DNA of 48,141 nt from Escherichia virus Lambda_4B5, in sequence record LR595863.1, one strand, 5' to 3'. The notes beneath the pieces are model-generated. The model saw nothing but the letters and a program-made list of their open reading frames with translations, made no database searches and had not been told where the DNA came from. Shown in pieces: positions 22,811-30,588 of this stretch (positions within the stretch are counted from its first letter, which is position 1; each line of letters starts with the position of its first letter). A program made the translations under genes and the position numbers.

Positions 22811-23104
22811 ATGGATATAAGCCCCTTACTTCATGCACTTTGTGCTGTGGCTGCGCAGATACTGGTTGGTCTTTTTACCGGAAACTGGGCTTACGGAGCG
22901 ATAGCCGGTTGTACGTTCTTCATTGCGCGTGAACATACCCAGGCAGAATATCGCTGGATTGAAATGTTCGGGCATGGCAAGCGAATGAATATGCCGTGGT
23001 GGGGCGGTTTTGATCCGCGAGCTTGGGATGTGGCAAGCCTGATGGATTTTGCTGTGCCGGTGGTGGCGTGTCTGCTGGTCTGGCTGTTGGTTAATCGTGG
23101 GTGA
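22811..23104 (+). CDS. Hypothetical small membrane protein
   Basis: 97-aa ORF with GGAAA RBS-like sequence upstream and two hydrophobic segments (N-terminal and C-terminal). Confidence 0.55.
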   Translation: MDISPLLHALCAVAAQILVGLFTGNWAYGAIAGCTFFIAREHTQAEYRWIEMFGHGKRMNMPWWGGFDPRAWDVASLMDFAVPVVACLLVWLLVNRG

Positions 23105-23195
23105 AAAAAGGTGAGCTGTATATGCAACGGAGGAAGAAACCCCGTTGCTGGAAGCCAGGAAAAAGTATCGGGTGTTGCTGTCCTCGGATGTTGTG

Positions 23196-24053
23196 CTAAT
23201 TGGGTGATAACAGATCCTGTGTATGGGAGTTTCCCTTTTTGCGTGCGTTGATGCTGGTAACGGCAAACGTCATGATGAACAAAACCGCGAATAAGACGAC
23301 AATCGTCGGAGCTGGTGCGCTGTCGATAAAAAAGGACAACCAGACACCAGTCATTGACACTATTACCGATATGCCAGTCGCCAGTAGGAGCGCAATATGA
23401 AAGCGTTGTGTCAGGAGTACCGCAATGGCGCCAGGCGCAATGAGCAGAGAAATGGAGAGAATGATACCTACCGCTTTCAGCGTCGCCACAATGGTCAGAG
23501 AGACCATGCACAGCAGCCCATAATGCAGCCATCTCGTATGCAAACCGCTTACCTGCGCCTGTTGATAATCAAAGCTGAACAGCAAAAAATCCCGCCATTT
23601 TACGCTAATAACAAGTGTAACCAGCCCGGCAATAATCATCGTCTGGATTATATCGCCGATGGTTATCCCGAGCATGTCGCCGAAAAGAATATGGTCAAGA
23701 TGTACGTCTGGTTTGACTGCAATATACAAGATCAGACCTGCGGCAAACATGCCAGAAAAAACAATCCCCATCACTGTATCTTGCTTGATTCGGCTGTTGT
23801 CTTTCAGGTATCCCGTCGCCACCGCGCAGAATACTCCGGCGACGAATGCCCCTGTAGCCAAAGGTAACCCCAGAATCCAGGCAAGCACGATGCCAGGAAA
23901 AACCGCATGACTCATCGCGTCACCCATCAGTGCCCAACCTTTCAGGACCAGAAAGACCGACAGCAGCGCACAGGGTATGGAAACTACCAGTGAAATCAGC
24001 AGTGCGTGACTCATAAAGGTGAACTGCAGTGGCTCCAGTAATAATGCCATCAT
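23196..24053 (-). CDS. sitD: Mn/Fe ABC transporter permease
   Basis: 285-aa polytopic membrane protein, last gene of a four-gene metal ABC operon; 4-bp overlap with upstream permease. Confidence 0.85.
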   Translation of the reverse strand: MMALLLEPLQFTFMSHALLISLVVSIPCALLSVFLVLKGWALMGDAMSHAVFPGIVLAWILGLPLATGAFVAGVFCAVATGYLKDNSRIKQDTVMGIVFSGMFAAGLILYIAVKPDVHLDHILFGDMLGITIGDIIQTMIIAGLVTLVISVKWRDFLLFSFDYQQAQVSGLHTRWLHYGLLCMVSLTIVATLKAVGIILSISLLIAPGAIAVLLTQRFHIALLLATGISVIVSMTGVWLSFFIDSAPAPTIVVLFAVLFIMTFAVTSINARKKGNSHTQDLLSPN

Positions 24054-24907
24054 GAGCGATCCTCCAGCGCCTTATGCGCACGCCGACGATTTGCCAAAAG
24101 CCCATGGGTGGGCGCAAAGACAAATGCTAAAAGAAACAGCAGTGTCTGCGCCACCACGATGATTCCACCTGTCGCGCCGTCCAGAAAGTAACTGACCCAC
24201 GCGCCGAGGAAACTGGTTACACTGCCAATAGTTACAGCAATCATGAGCAGGCGGGGAAAACGATCGGTTAACAACCATGCTGTTGCACCGGGAGTCACCA
24301 CCAGACAGATCACCAGAAAGGCACCAACCGTTTGCAGCGCCGCAACGGTCGAAACCGACAGCAGGGTGAAGAAGAGGAGTTTTAATCTGCCCGGATGCAA
24401 TCCAATAGCACGGGCGTGATTCTCGTCGAAAAAGGTCACCATAAGATCTTTCCATTTGAAAAAAAGCACGATGATCGAGAGAATGCCAATGATAGTGAGT
24501 TGCAGGATATCCGCCGGATCGATTGCCAGAATATTGCCCAGGACGATGGTCTGAATGTTCACAGATGTCGGGTTCAATGACACCATAAACAGCCCCAGGC
24601 CAAAAAAGGACGAGAAGATCAGACCGATGATGGCATCTTCTTTTAAGCGGGTGCGTTGGTTAAGAAACAGCATGCTGCCCGCAGCCAGTCCGCCGGAAAA
24701 GAAGGCTCCCAGAGAAAACGGAAGCCCCAGCATATATGCCCCCGCAACACCCGGGACAATAGAGTGCGACAACGCATCGCCAATCAGCGACCAGCCTTTT
24801 AGCATCAGATAGCATGACAGGAAAGCGCAGAGACCGCCGACCATCGCCGAGACCCACATCGCATTGAGCATATATTCATAGCTGAAGGGTTCCAGTAGCA
24901 CGTTCAT
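24050..24907 (-). CDS. sitC: Mn/Fe ABC transporter permease
   Basis: 285-aa polytopic membrane protein of the same family, overlapping neighbours by 4 bp. Confidence 0.85.
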
Positions 24908-25731
24908 CTTTCTTCCCTCTGCACCGCTGACGGTCGATGAGCCACAAAAGGGCGTTCATCGTCAGTAATAATGCTTTCTTCCGAGCCGTTAAGTGTGACA
25001 TGGCGCAGTACGCCGCTAAAAGCCAGCTCTAGGTTCTCGGCTGTAAAAGTGGTGTCTGTCGGCCCGCTTGCCAGGACGGTGCCTTTGACCATGACCGTAT
25101 AATCGCAAAATGTCGTGACGGATCCGAGATTGTGTGTTGAGACAAGCATCGTTTTGCCTTCCGCGCGTAACTCCCTCAACAGGCTGATGATTTTGGCTTC
25201 GGTTTTCACATCAACGCCAGTAAAAGGTTCATCCAGCAGGATCACATCACCCTGCTGTGCAATCGCTCTCGCCAGAAAGACGCGTTTCTTTTGTCCACCG
25301 GAAAGCTCGCCGATTTGTCGATGGCGAAAATTCACCATATCGACACGTTCCAGCGCATCGGTGACAATTTGACGATCCCTCTTTTTGGCGATACGCAACA
25401 TACCCATATGCCCATAGCGGCCCATCATCACCACATCTTCCACCAGTACAGGAAATGACCAGTCAACATCTTCTGACTGAGGGACGTAGGCAACCAGGTT
25501 TTTCTGTAACGCCTGTCGCGTGGGAATACCCAGAACAGATATCTTTCCGCTGGTCAGACGCACAAATCCCATAATCGCTTTAAACAACGTCGATTTTCCG
25601 GAACCGTTTACCCCAACCAGAGCGGCAATAGATCCACTTGGTACTGTGAAGGATGCATCGCGCAGTGCTGTGTGCCCGTTACGCCAGGTGACAGTAACAT
25701 CATTAACGACAATGCCTGCAGATTGCATCAT
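24904..25731 (-). CDS. sitB: Mn/Fe ABC transporter ATP-binding protein
   Basis: Walker [13 protein letters not shown] signature LSGGQKKR, Walker B ILLDEP. Confidence 0.9.
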
Positions 25732-26645
25732 TATTTCTCCCTTTTCCCAGCTTTAATTCCCTGTACCAGCGTACTGGTAGTAACCTTAAGAAGGTCGATA
25801 TACGTCGGTACCGGGCCGTTTTCTGTGCTCAGGGAATCGACATAGAGCACACCGCCGTAGTGTGCGCCGGTTTCACGCGCAACCTGACGCGCTGGTTTAT
25901 CGGAAATCGTACTCTCGCTAAAGACTGCCGGGATATGATTTTTCTTAACTATATCAACAACCTTACGTACCTGCTGCGGTGTTCCTTGTTGATCGGCATT
26001 AATCGGCCACAGATAAAGCTCTTTTAGCCCCAAATCGCGTGCGAGATAAGAAAAAGCCCCTTCACTGGTGACCATCCATCGCTGATTCTCAGGGAGTTCC
26101 GTAATCTGCTTACGCAGGGGGGCAAGGGTTTGGGTAATCTTGGCTTTATAAGTATCGGCATTGCGTTGGTAGGTTTGTGCATTTGCCGGATCGTATTTTA
26201 TCAACGCATCACGAATATTATCGACGTAAATCAGAGCATTATCTGGCGACATCCATGCATGGGGGTTAGGTTTGCCCTCATAGGGTCCTTCGGTGATCCC
26301 TACAGGCGTCACACCCGAAGAGACAATTACTTCTGGAACCCCATTGAGATGCTGGTAAAAGCGTTGGAACCACAATTCCAGATTCATACCATTGGCGAGA
26401 ATCAGTTGTGCCCCCTGCGCACGTTTAATATCGCCAGGGGTAGGCTGATACTCATGAATTTCTGCACCAGGCTTGGTTATGGATGAGACTTCTGCAGCAT
26501 CTCCCGCCACGTTTTTGGCCATATCCGCGATGATGGTAAATGTTGTAATGACCTTGAATTTTTCAGTTGCACTTGCCTGAAATGCGATCGAGCAGGTGAG
26601 TGCGAGCCCCCCCAAGAGCATGGTTACTTTTTTTATCGAGTGCAT
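25731..26645 (-). CDS. sitA: Periplasmic metal-binding protein (cluster A-I solute-binding protein)
   Basis: 304-aa protein with N-terminal signal peptide, His/Glu metal-ligand pattern of SitA/YfeA/MntC-type binding proteins. Confidence 0.88.
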
Positions 26646-26738: not shown

Positions 26739-27038
26739 GCAGCTTTGAGGCCCAAAACAGGGATTAGGTTGTTTCCTGCTGGCGACGCGTTATTGAGGAA
26801 AAAAGTAAGGCAGCTAGTAGGCTTTGAAATAACGTTTTGCGGTTGGCTGATGCAATTTCGAGAGTGCATGTATTGAATGATTTCTAGCCGTTACTGATTT
26901 TCGTATTTTTTGTATGGGAGGATTTGCACCTCCCCCCACCGAGCCTCCATGACTTTACTCCACTGTCTCTAGGGCTGCTGTGTGCCAGGAGCGGAAGCAG
27001 GGGGGGCCAGAGACTCCTTAAAAGTTGATAGCTCGTTT

Positions 27039-27136
27039 TGCAGGGAGACTTACACGGTAAGCGTTATTCCGAAGAGCTTAAAATTGAAGCAGTCAAACGG
27101 GTTGTTGAGCGTGTTTATGCGCTGCCATCTGATTAA
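27039..27136 (+). pseudogene. Remnant of an IS3-family transposase OrfA N-terminus
   Basis: Short frame translating ...GKRYSEELKIEAVKRVVERVYALPSD* resembles the conserved N-terminus of IS3-family OrfA proteins; truncated at both ends. Confidence 0.35.
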
Positions 27137-27332
27137 TCGACGGAAGCAGTTCCGTTTGGTCTATGATGCAGTTGTCCGGCAGGCGCTCTGTGACGCAAAA
27201 GAACGATAGGAGTAGCATTGAAGTGAACGAGGTTATGCTTGTCTTATATTATCCTCTATTTTAAAAACATCAGCTGGTTGTGTAAGAGTTTTTATTGTTT
27301 TATCTTGTTGACTTTGCTTTTATGAAAACAGA

Positions 27333-28103
27333 GTGATTGATACAATGAAAACCTTAAGTGGGAAAGAGTTTAGGAAATTATTTAATCGTTATGAGACAGG
27401 ATTCTATCTAAGTGAGTTTGAATACTTAAAGGACTTTGATCCTTTGTTTCCTGAATGCGTAGGGAAAGAATTAAAGTTGGGTTATAAACGAAAAGTTGAT
27501 GTATGGTGCGAAGAGGATGCTGCGCTATATGCAGAATTTATAGCTACAAAAGAAAGGCTGAAAAGAGGCCGGTTAATCCTAAAAATAAACCAAGTGTGGT
27601 CGCGTGTATATCCTGCTTATATTTATGCAATTGAAGAAAGAATAAATGTCAGGGCAAAGGGGAGAGAGTCATTTAAGTATGAAACTGTGCAAGAAAAACA
27701 ATGTAAACTTTCCATAATGTTAGATGGTCTGAAAGACCTTGAATGTGAAATAGCTATGATTTCAAGTGAGTTTGAAATTGAAAAACACTCTATGCACTAT
27801 TTTTATATGATTTTTGATATTGAACGCTATATAAATGACTGCAGTTACTTTGTTTTTTCTGCTGCTAAAGTTGTTAAAGGCGTGATTCAATGCATTGGTT
27901 ACATTGACAAAAATAACAAAGCAAGTTGCGATGAATTTTATTCAGGCAGCTATGAATGCTTGGATGATGATCAGGAAACACTGAACTATTTAAATGAATC
28001 ATGCGCAGAGGGTATAGACGCTGATAAAGATCTCATCAGGAAGAATGAGTTATTAGCCTTATCCCTGAAGGAATTGTATCAACTTCTCGTTTCAAAAAAA
28101 TAA
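27333..28103 (+). CDS. Hypothetical protein, AT-rich orphan
   Basis: 256-aa ORF in a markedly AT-rich segment between the sit operon and attP; no family recognised. Confidence 0.7.
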   Translation: MIDTMKTLSGKEFRKLFNRYETGFYLSEFEYLKDFDPLFPECVGKELKLGYKRKVDVWCEEDAALYAEFIATKERLKRGRLILKINQVWSRVYPAYIYAIEERINVRAKGRESFKYETVQEKQCKLSIMLDGLKDLECEIAMISSEFEIEKHSMHYFYMIFDIERYINDCSYFVFSAAKVVKGVIQCIGYIDKNNKASCDEFYSGSYECLDDDQETLNYLNESCAEGIDADKDLIRKNELLALSLKELYQLLVSKK

Positions 28104-28432
28104 CAAGTAATACGGCGAGCGATATGACGTGCCATGGGATATCCGCACCCAGCAGCATGTTGTCTCCACGATGTCCGCAGTTCGCTCATAATAGACATTC
28201 ACTACAGTTATAGTAGAAGGTATGCATGCTGCTGAGTGGGGAAAGTGTGAAAGAAAAGAAGACAGCTGCTTTGTTTGTCGTCACGTTTATCTTCATTGGC
28301 TATGCAAGTCGTAATACAAGGCGGGACAAAACTGAGACACATAAGGCCTCGCAATGGCTTGCAAGGCCACACATGTATTGAGATGTTAATAAAATGTAGA
28401 CTTGTAATTTTGATATAAATGGTAGAGAAAAT

Positions 28433-28445
28433 CTTTCCCCAAAAT
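28433..28445 (+). repeat. Putative integrase arm-type site (P arm copy)
   Basis: CTTTCCCCAAAAT, same motif as the triple repeat next to int. Confidence 0.45.
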
Positions 28446-28571
28446 AAAAACGAACGTCAATGAAATCAAACGGTTGAATAAAGTTGATTTTGGCTAATAC
28501 AAAGACAAGAAAATAATATTTATGATTAAATATCAGCGAGTTGAATACATAATTTTTATATACTGTTACGC

Positions 28572-28727
28572 CATATGGGCTGGACTGAAGCCGCAGACCT
28601 GATTGTTAAAGGTATGGAAGGCGCAATCAACGCCAAGACTGTAACCTATGACTTCGAACGTCTGATGGAAGGCGCTAAATTGCTGAAATGTAGCGAGTTT
28701 GGCGACGCGATCATCAAGAACATGTAA
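28572..28727 (+). pseudogene. icd: Phage-borne 3' fragment of isocitrate dehydrogenase gene (replacement icd end)
   Basis: Frame translates [51 protein letters not shown], the Icd C-terminus with two substitutions relative to the E. coli sequence I remember; homology stops abruptly upstream near 28563. Confidence 0.85.
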
Positions 28728-28750
28728 TCACTACATGTGTTAAATATTTA

Positions 28751-28779
28751 AACGGGCGTGTTATACGCCCGTTGTTTTA
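28751..28779 (+). terminator. Intrinsic terminator following the icd fragment
   Basis: AACGGGCGT-GTTAT-ACGCCCGTT hairpin followed by GTTTTAT. Confidence 0.7.
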
Positions 28780-28793
28780 TGATGATGTAAAAT

Positions 28794-28830
28794 CTTCCCC
28801 AAAACTTTCCCCAAAACCCTTCCCCAAAAC
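28794..28830 (+). repeat. Three tandem arm-type repeats (P' arm), CTTCCCCAAAAC x3
   Basis: CTTCCCCAAAAC / TTTCCCCAAAAC / CCTTCCCCAAAAC in direct tandem immediately downstream of int stop. Confidence 0.6.
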
Positions 28831-28840
28831 TGGCTATTTT

Positions 28841-29983
28841 CTATGCTGTTTTGATATCTACGATAACCCAGTCTTTACCACGATCATCATTGTATCGGTC
28901 GGTCATTTTTCTGGATTTATGGCCTAACAACTTTTGCGTATCCAGACCCTGTTCCCGATATAACCGTTCTGACAGAGATCGCTGCTCATGAAATGTGGGC
29001 GCAGTTCCTTGCTCCCATTTTATGCCACATTTTTCCCTGGCCTTTTTAAAAGCCGTTGTCAGAGTATTTGCAGAAACCTGGTCTCCTCTGTTTGCTTGAG
29101 AGGTAGTGTGACGGTAATGGACCAGATATTTACTAACAACAGCATCCCTGCACTGAGATATAACTTCACGAAGGGTAATATTCAGAGCATCGCATTTCAG
29201 GTTAAGCGGAATAGCAAGTTTTGAACCGGTTTTTTCCTGAGTAATGTGCAACATGTCGTCCCAGATATCAGAGAATTTCAAATTGCAGATATCACCTAAA
29301 CGTTGTCCAGTAACAAGAGCAAGTAGCATGCCGCATTTTAAATAGGGCTGCCGTCTGCTTACGCTTTCAAATATTGCCTGCCATTCGGGCAGTGACAATC
29401 TTTGGCGGTTTACTCGATTTCGCGGTTGTTTTGTTGCCTGCGCTGGGTTAAATCCTGGCGGAACATGTCCTGCGTGTTGTGCTTCTTTGAAGACGTCGAT
29501 CAACACCATTCTCACGACTTGCGCCATCCTGTTATGACCTTCAGCCTTTACAGCATCAATTATTTCGGCAATATCAAGTGCGGTAATATCCTTGAGGTGT
29601 TGCATTCCACAATGCTCACGGAAAAGACGAATGGGTTTGCCTTTTTGCCGATAGGAGTTGGGTCTTAGTTCATTATGTTGCAGCCTGTCCTCCTGGATAG
29701 AAATATATTTATCAAGCCATTCTGTCACCGTAATTTCTGAGCGCCTGCCTTTCATTCTTTCCAGACGCTCATTGACGCTTAATATTTGTCGGGTACGTTG
29801 TTCAGCAATAATGGTATTTGCTTCAGTAGCAACTTGTTTTGCTTCATTCTCATCAGTTCCTAAGCTATGAAAACGACCGGATAGTGGATGTTTGTATTGC
29901 CAATATACCTTTCCGGTTCGCTTATCTAATTTGCAATATAAATTGGGTATAGAGATTTTGTGAGATCGGGGTCTAGCAGCCAT
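28841..29983 (-). CDS. int: Tyrosine integrase (lambda family, icd-targeting type)
   Basis: 380-aa ORF with C-terminal catalytic region (R...HxxR...Y pattern: LGHKSRKMTDRY), adjacent to attP and xis. Confidence 0.9.
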   Translation of the reverse strand: MAARPRSHKISIPNLYCKLDKRTGKVYWQYKHPLSGRFHSLGTDENEAKQVATEANTIIAEQRTRQILSVNERLERMKGRRSEITVTEWLDKYISIQEDRLQHNELRPNSYRQKGKPIRLFREHCGMQHLKDITALDIAEIIDAVKAEGHNRMAQVVRMVLIDVFKEAQHAGHVPPGFNPAQATKQPRNRVNRQRLSLPEWQAIFESVSRRQPYLKCGMLLALVTGQRLGDICNLKFSDIWDDMLHITQEKTGSKLAIPLNLKCDALNITLREVISQCRDAVVSKYLVHYRHTTSQANRGDQVSANTLTTAFKKAREKCGIKWEQGTAPTFHEQRSLSERLYREQGLDTQKLLGHKSRKMTDRYNDDRGKDWVIVDIKTA

Positions 29984-30209
29984 CAGCGATTATCCGTTGG
30001 AGTTTTGGGTTTGCGTTTATTGGGAGTTGCGGTTCTGCAAGCGTTCCTACAAAACGGGAATTTCGGTCAATCATCCAGTAGCGACCAACTTTTATAGCGG
30101 GTGGGGCCATCATTTTCCCTTGCGCGTATTTTTTCAGAACTCGCTCACTTGGTGCTAAGTCCCCAAATTCTTCTTTAGCCCAGTCCTGTAAAGTGATTAG
30201 TCGAGACAT
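29973..30209 (-). CDS. xis: Excisionase
   Basis: 78-aa ORF overlapping int start, MSRLITLQDWAKEE... with winged-helix-like region similar to lambda Xis. Confidence 0.8.
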   Translation of the reverse strand: MSRLITLQDWAKEEFGDLAPSERVLKKYAQGKMMAPPAIKVGRYWMIDRNSRFVGTLAEPQLPINANPKLQRIIADGC

Positions 30210-30348
30210 TTGTCCTCCTCTTAGCTGCTGAGGGAGTTTGTGACCGATATATCTGACATGATATTAAGCTCATGGCAGGTACATCTCTTGACTGGTCATA
30301 GAGATAAATTTAATGCTGAGAAATGCAGTATTGAATTTATCAATTTTT

Positions 30349-30588
30349 CTATTTCCTGCGTATGGCACGTAACTTCTTAATGTGTTCTGCCGTTTCGATC
30401 TCTTCTGCTATCCGATCTGCATCAGCTTTATTCACAGGTTCAAAGTCATGATTAAAGCGGAACATGCTGGCGATACATGTTCTGCCTTTTCGGATGTAGT
30501 GAACTTTGTTGTAGGTAGAACGCAGGATTTTGCAGGGAGTGCCGTGGTGGTCGACGTACCAGGTGTTAGGAAAAATGATTCTGAGCAT
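30349..30588 (-). CDS. Hypothetical protein
   Basis: 79-aa ORF in early-left accessory region. Confidence 0.5.
   Translation of the reverse strand: MLRIIFPNTWYVDHHGTPCKILRSTYNKVHYIRKGRTCIASMFRFNHDFEPVNKADADRIAEEIETAEHIKKLRAIRRK

Follow-up and report, generated by a model that had tools for sequence, protein, structure and literature searches.

The region between positions 28420 and 28840 of the phage genome analysed here is, with a probability that we put at roughly 0.93, the attP by which a lambdoid phage of the phage 21 type inserts itself into the host gene icd. The window, by which we mean the whole stretch of DNA that was analysed, is 48,141 bp long and is one linear, whole cos-cut lambdoid phage genome with lambda-type cohesive ends. 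An icd-integrating system with a replacement 3′ end is already known from work dating to 1988–1997 and is annotated in the phage 21 GenBank record. Public descriptions of phage 21-type integration into icd exist (PMC4129442, PMC6379469, PMC12803456), with a passage of PMC4129442 that cites Campbell 1992 giving 165 bp as the length of icd 3′ end replaced by phage 21, and an essay by Campbell (PMC3530522) describes phage 21 and e14 as sharing the same site with different specificities that are set on the phage DNA. As the icd strategy was worked out long ago the discovery value is small, and the gain for this genome is a clean annotation comprising the limits of attP, its arm sites and a core interval cut to 10 bp (Table 1). 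The original prediction, made from the letters of the DNA, had recognised the phage 21/e14 strategy of inserting into icd and restoring its 3′ end, and this is borne out by an integrase 99% identical to that of phage 21 and by a lysogen attL with an intact icd.

Table 1. Features of the attP region and of the adjoining recombination genes, with positions in the window
Feature	Position	Strand	Remarks
P-arm candidate arm-type Int site, CTTTCCCCAAAA	28433..28444	+	131 bp left of core; perfect YYTTCCCCAAAA match
IHF consensus match AATCAAACGGTTG, H1-like	28464..28476	+	exact WATCAANNNNTTR; 20 bp right of P-arm site
Putative IHF-like site TATCAGCGAGTTG, H2-like, weak	28531..28543	+	one mismatch; not significant alone
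Common core / crossover interval TGTTACGCCA	28564..28573		icd nt 1088–1097, codons 363–366
Replacement icd 3′ end	28564..28727	+	164 nt, 53 full codons plus stop; 100% identical to tail of intact icd in lysogen 118UI
Intrinsic terminator for restored icd transcript	28751..28780	+	fold; terminator annotated in phage 21
P′-arm candidate arm-type site 1, TCTTCCCCAAAA	28793..28804	+	+229 from start of icd homology
P′-arm candidate arm-type site 2, CTTTCCCCAAAA	28805..28816	+	+241 from start of icd homology
P′-arm candidate arm-type site 3, CCTTCCCCAAAA	28818..28829	+	+254; 12 nt from int stop codon
int, lambda-family heterobivalent tyrosine integrase, 380 aa	28841..29983	-	Pfam, structure alignment
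xis, excisionase, 78 aa	29973..30209	-	overlaps int start; Pfam Exc PF07825 6.7e-06; excisionase in phage 21

The nature of the junction is settled in the first place by the ends of the window, whose first letters are GGGGCGGCGACCTCGCGGGTTTTCGC and whose last letters are CGATCCGACAGGTTAC. Both are lambda-type cohesive-end sequences, so that the window is a free phage genome and the junction within it an attP and not a prophage end. Were the junction instead chromosomal, it would be either a prophage end or a hybrid between tandem prophages at icd, and such structures do exist, as full-length attP-like junctions are present in two E. coli chromosomes (FXCREC028 and FXCREC048) and there are IMG/VR contigs in which a 21-type P arm is joined to an e14-type P′ arm. 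A chromosomal origin is nevertheless extremely improbable, given the lambda-type cos at both window ends, a length equal to one phage genome, collinearity with sequenced free phages at 100% identity (from 20466 onward, to phages 1H12, Lambda_2E9 and the ev series), and the presence to the left of 28564 of phage b-region DNA and not of icd.

With the junction read as an attP, its closest described relative is that of phage 21. The att region of the window is 97.3% identical to the phage 21 records M61865 and OL657228, and phages with a 100% identical att region have already been sequenced. The annotated order in OL657228 runs from SitA through hypothetical genes and CII sites to an ‘ICDH-like’ pseudogene, a terminator, attP, a tyrosine integrase and an excisionase; its attP label, with three subsites P1P2P3 of consensus YYTTCCCCAAAA, covers the three tandem copies together, and pseudogene, terminator and attP match the window feature for feature. 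The two phages have in common the four dodecamers, the icd tail, the terminator, the order b-region/attP/int/xis and the icd target. They differ in two bases of the core, at 28566 and 28568 (TGTTACG in the window, TGCTGCG in phage 21 and most relatives), in 8 of the 164 nt of the icd tail, all synonymous, and in the terminator loop, which is inverted; the rest of the window genome belongs to the 1H12/Lambda_2E9 group.

The integrase itself is identical to phage 21 Int at 376 of 380 residues (99%). Pfam finds an Arm-DNA-bind_1 domain (PF09003, 1.7e-28) over residues 1–71 and a Phage_integrase domain (PF00589, 1.1e-23), and lambda Int structures can be aligned with the protein from end to end (1z1b, 1.3e-55), which puts its catalytic R, H-x-x-R, H and Y residues, seen as TGQR, HEQRS, GHKS and a C-terminal Y, opposite those of lambda Int. 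To judge from this 21-type Int and the YYTTCCCCAAAA consensus of its repeats, the phage would belong to the specificity group of phage 21 rather than to that of e14.

The in-frame copy of icd next to int was correctly foreseen, although its length is 53 codons plus a stop and not the 51 codons first proposed. Complete icd codons occupy 28566–28724 and the stop 28725–28727, and within the tail an ATG-started ORF of 50 aa spans 28575–28727. The segment supplied by the phage is icd nt 1088–1251. Identity between host icd and attP begins at 28564, directly after a position (28563) where the phage has C and the host A, so that the abrupt end of homology expected near 28563 is placed to the base. 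The two residue differences from the host protein that had been noted are likewise real with respect to K-12 Icd, where there are exactly two (D to E and E to K); the reference, however, is a K-12 tail that is itself e14-derived, with K-12’s own original tail (icdC) differing again, and the tail protein shows zero amino-acid differences from either the displaced host tail of 118UI or phage 21. In the phage 21 GenBank record the tail is entered as an ICDH-like pseudogene, the ‘last 53 AA’.

The copy also has its own terminator, as had been claimed, with a 10-bp stem at 28751–28773 that includes 6 G-C pairs and is followed by GTTTTAT (z = -3.2). Its loop reads GTTAT where phage 21, other relatives and the host copy have the exact inverse complement, ATAAC, and what appear to be three substitutions are therefore one hairpin-loop inversion.

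Lysogen genomes supply both prophage junctions. In E. coli 118UI, attL consists of icd nt 1–1087 joined to the window from 28564 onward, with int and xis next to it; no difference from the window occurs between 28564 and 28900, and the icd that it contains is intact (1251 nt, 416 codons). At attR the same strain matches the window without a difference over 28300–28639 and then runs into the displaced icd tail beside iraM. These junctions, read from the genome sequence, are exactly the two halves of attP joined to icd. When the left part of attL and the right part of attR are put together, the resulting 586 bp are found 100% identical in one piece at icd–iraM in at least 40 single-copy genomes, and since the rebuilt attB equals the empty sites exactly, integration is conservative and precise. 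Prophages lie inside icd in 118UI, PapRG-06-3, SCU-152 and EC1, with an intact icd at one end and the displaced tail at the far end. That Int recombines this attP with the icd attB, and that Int plus Xis excise the prophage, is predicted, with indirect backing from natural lysogens whose att arms are the same as those of the phage. A count over 5426 complete E. coli genomes gave 1688 with the icd-tail/arm-site/int junction and 1679 with the int gene; compared as totals, these figures indicate that int is essentially always beside icd. The original prediction had staked itself on lysogens being integrated at icd and not elsewhere, and icd is where they are found.

The position of strand exchange is best defined by E. 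coli SCU-152, which carries an Int identical to that of the window at 375 of 380 residues (99%). Its attL reads GATGA-TGTTACGCCA-CATGGGTTGGGT and its attR TATAC-TGTTACGCCA-TATGGGCTGG, and the two have only the 10 bp at 28564–28573 in common, a block that the window attP and empty attB sites contain as well. As nothing beyond these 10 bp is shared, the exchange made by a phage 21-type Int lies within 28564–28573. For e14 in K-12, the stretch common to attL and attR is no longer than ATGCTGCGCCA, 11 bp equivalent to 28563–28573, and the crossover interval of the window is nested in this e14 core. Alignment with host icd and the SCU-152 junctions thus place the exchange at the 5′ edge of the icd homology, where the core had been expected. 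General homologous recombination anywhere along the 164-bp homology would be a different route to the same outcome, and it could draw on the 118UI junctions, which bound the exchange only to 28564–28639 (moving right, phage and host first differ at 28640, and their tails do so at just three positions in all), and on the mosaic icd-tail haplotypes in the population, which show that homologous exchange shuffles the segment. Against it, the early-differing tails of SCU-152 and of K-12 (e14) leave only 10 and 11 bp shared at the edge of the homology, an int–xis pair adjoins and arm sites are present, which makes homologous recombination as the mode of insertion exceedingly unlikely. Within the interval used in site-specific exchange, our guess for the overlap O is 28564–28570, where a weak core-type inverted repeat, TTTATATAC/TGTTACG/CCATATGGG, would put it. 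As only 4 to 5 of 9 positions of this repeat match by eye, the placement does not count as a finding.

Repeats of a single dodecamer, unlike the core in sequence, lie on both sides of this core. The YYTTCCCCAAAA consensus has exactly four perfect matches in the 48,141 bp, all on the plus strand and all in attP, where about 0.02 per window would be expected by chance (analytically, both strands). The three tandem repeats predicted on the int side exist as exact copies of TTCCCCAAAAC at 28795, 28807 and 28820. On the other side TTCCCCAAAAT stands at 28435, in an AT-rich left arm that carries CTTTCCCCAAAAT at 28433–28445; the single repeat claimed here is present at 28433–28444, with T and not C as its last base. 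None of the four sites varies among phage 21, Perceval, ev017, ev207 and 3W, whereas their flanks do, and 3W keeps all four dodecamers although its left arm diverges nearby. Phage D2 (OM475427), whose record has N runs and left-arm DNA joined to host icd, was left out of this comparison of relatives. The outermost dodecamers span 397 bp, the P′ sites being set much farther from the core than those of lambda by some 230 bp of gene tail and terminator. Wang et al. are reported to have delimited, in 1997, a minimal attP of 366–418 bp bounded by the outermost dodecamers, and the 397-bp span fits this figure for phage 21.

From their sequence, geometry and homology we infer that the repeats are arm-type Int sites, a reading for which comparative support is strong. 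The element e14 has the same geometry with a motif of its own, TTATCAAAA, placed at -127, +234, +245 and +258 relative to the core (-131, +229, +241 and +254 in the window), and with an Int only 60% identical, and this supports the arm-site reading. It could be argued that an aberrant excision long ago left the icd fragment behind as a passive relic and that the TTCCCCAAAAC repeats serve something other than Int arm binding, for example Xis or CII binding or regulation of the int 3′ end: in GenBank the copy in the free phage is labelled a pseudogene that is not expressed, and the three tandem repeats lie immediately beyond the int stop, a position equally open to a regulatory element. We regard this as very unlikely, as in lysogens the fragment is the working end of an intact icd, while the motif occurs on both arms and nowhere else in the 48 kb, e14 repeats the distances with a different motif and a diverged Int, the Int of the window has a lambda arm-binding domain, and the one-plus-three layout by the int stop matches P1 plus P′1–3 of lambda. 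Taking the repeats as candidate arm-type sites, a second P-arm site comparable to lambda P2 was sought at up to 2 mismatches and none was found; the candidates at 28488–99 and 28234–45 (minus strand) have 3 mismatches and are unconvincing.

For IHF, the consensus WATCAANNNNTTR is matched exactly at three places in the 48 kb, and the H1-like match beside the P-arm site is one of them. By reading of the printed sequence, the e14 P arm has AATCAATGAGTTA at a similar offset, and lambda H1 likewise adjoins a P-arm site. One-mismatch matches, the class to which the H2-like site belongs, occur about once per kb in the window. A consensus scan of the P′ arm (about 230 bp between the core and the P′ sites) found no IHF-like site, and a search of 27000–30500 against Rfam found no known RNA family in or beside attP, giving only a chance-level match to L20_leader (E = 0.72).

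Besides phage 21, three kinds of known system can be set beside that of the window. The K-12 cryptic prophage e14 (Brody and Hill 1988; Hill et al. 1989) shares the icd attB, the core interval and a replacement tail with terminator. It differs in its arm motif, TTATCAAAA where the window has TTCCCCAAAA, in its IntE, which is 60% identical to the window Int, in its tail, which encodes D and E where that of the window phage encodes E and K, and in its gene order, the K-12 int being apart from the att site with ymfD, ymfE and lit in between.

In common with the window, lambda has an Int homologous over the full length, including the arm-binding domain, a xis that overlaps int, an IHF consensus match next to a P-arm site, a tandem trio of P′ sites that abuts the end of int and a sib-like hairpin beyond attP. 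The lambda attP measures about 240 bp and keeps its P′ sites to within some 85 bp of the core, whereas the P′ sites of the window are 229–266 bp from the core and no P2-like P-arm site was detected; lambda also integrates between genes, at gal–bio, and carries no gene fragment. Finally, elements that target 3′ ends, such as DLP12 at argU and many tRNA-targeting phages and islands, similarly keep their target functional with a copy of the displaced gene end, a practice of integrative elements that has been described (PMC6379469). The present system differs from these in that the target is protein-coding and the duplicate, at 164 nt plus terminator, is long and differs from the host copy.

Taken as a working model, the assembly at attP might be as follows. 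The N-terminal domain of Int would occupy four dodecamers in all, the single arm-type site of the P arm at -131 and the tandem trio of the P′ arm at +229 to +254, with its core-binding and catalytic domains at the core, and IHF would probably bend the P arm at 28464–28476. Strand exchange between attP and attB occurs within 28564–28573, as the lysogen junctions show. The phage-borne icd nt 1088–1251 and the terminator, which lie between the core and the P′ sites, allow attL in lysogens to read as an intact 416-codon icd, and the host’s own icd tail stays behind as a pseudogene at attR beside iraM.

The surroundings of attP also resemble those in phage 21. A strong minus-strand hairpin (28368 to 28345) lies just beyond attP, downstream of int, with a 101-nt fold of -25.3 kcal/mol (z = -2.9). 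Two CII-type TTGYN6TTGY motifs are present within 28316–28368, at 28316–29 and 28351–64, and the hairpin overlaps one of them; across the window this motif is not enriched, with 9 found and 10.9 expected. Phage 21 has a sib-like stem-loop with downstream cII sites (Campbell, PMC3530522), which the hairpin and the CII-type motifs match, and in the prophage the sib-like hairpin would be parted from int. The b region also holds, on the minus strand (22891–26645), an operon of four genes, the last of which encodes a SitA-like periplasmic binding protein of 304 aa. Like its counterpart in phage 21, this cargo specifies a manganese/iron ABC transporter of the sitABCD type. Two plus-strand ORFs, of 256 aa (27333–28103) and 51 aa (28226–28381), lie between this operon and attP, and neither has a Pfam match; both are conserved, and in phage 21 they are labelled as hypothetical or as a putative membrane protein. 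The prophage sRNA co293/svsR (PMC12803456) was followed up and judged not relevant here, as svsR is located in cI, far from attP.

The abundance of such elements in E. coli bears mention. Some 31% of complete genomes (1679–1688 of 5426) have a 21-type int beside icd. Most E. coli genomes contain two or more copies of the icd tail, which indicates that a large share of strains have some element sitting in icd. Four IMG/VR contigs carry a 21-type P arm, core and icd tail followed by three copies of the e14-type TTATCAAAA, and these hybrid junctions, together with the two chromosomes that have attP-like junctions, point to tandem elements stacked at icd.

The core itself exists in two forms, on phage and host alike. 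Among 19 IMG/VR junctions only the TGTTACG and TGCTGCG haplotypes were seen, with a search pattern that admitted four. Two pattern scans of IMG/VR aimed at pairing attL with attR alleles had no contig in common. Host icd has the same synonymous dimorphism at Leu364, 1847 of 5426 genomes having TTA at the junction and 2569 having CTG, and attR sites with a left arm of the window type have TTA in 108 genomes and CTG in 630. Position 28568 falls inside any overlap of at least 6 bp that fits the 10-bp block. In the lysogens sampled, both junctions carry TTA in 118UI, EC1 and SCU-152 and both carry CTG in DSM 30083 and ZJ3920, while PapRG-06-3 has CTG at attL and TTA at attR; the alleles therefore match in five of six lysogens, whose lineages are not independent. 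The PapRG-06-3 prophage is a sister of that in SCU-152, with 3 differences in 1.5 kb of which two are in the core, and its combination of TGCTGCG at attL with TGTTACG at attR is not predicted by simple exchange between identical overlaps. This discordance looks like either a rare heterologous-overlap integration or a later conversion.

By analogy with lambda, phages and hosts with mismatched cores should recombine poorly. We can only tentatively suggest, and judge it somewhat improbable, that the two bases by which the cores differ define a functional att allele and do not reflect neutral drift, such that each allele would lysogenise efficiently only those hosts with a matching icd. The core dimorphism is a mildly new point, a lead rather than a result, and it poses a small, testable question on the relation of overlap identity to lysogenic host range. 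If the suggestion were true, E. coli would be split into two integration-compatibility groups.
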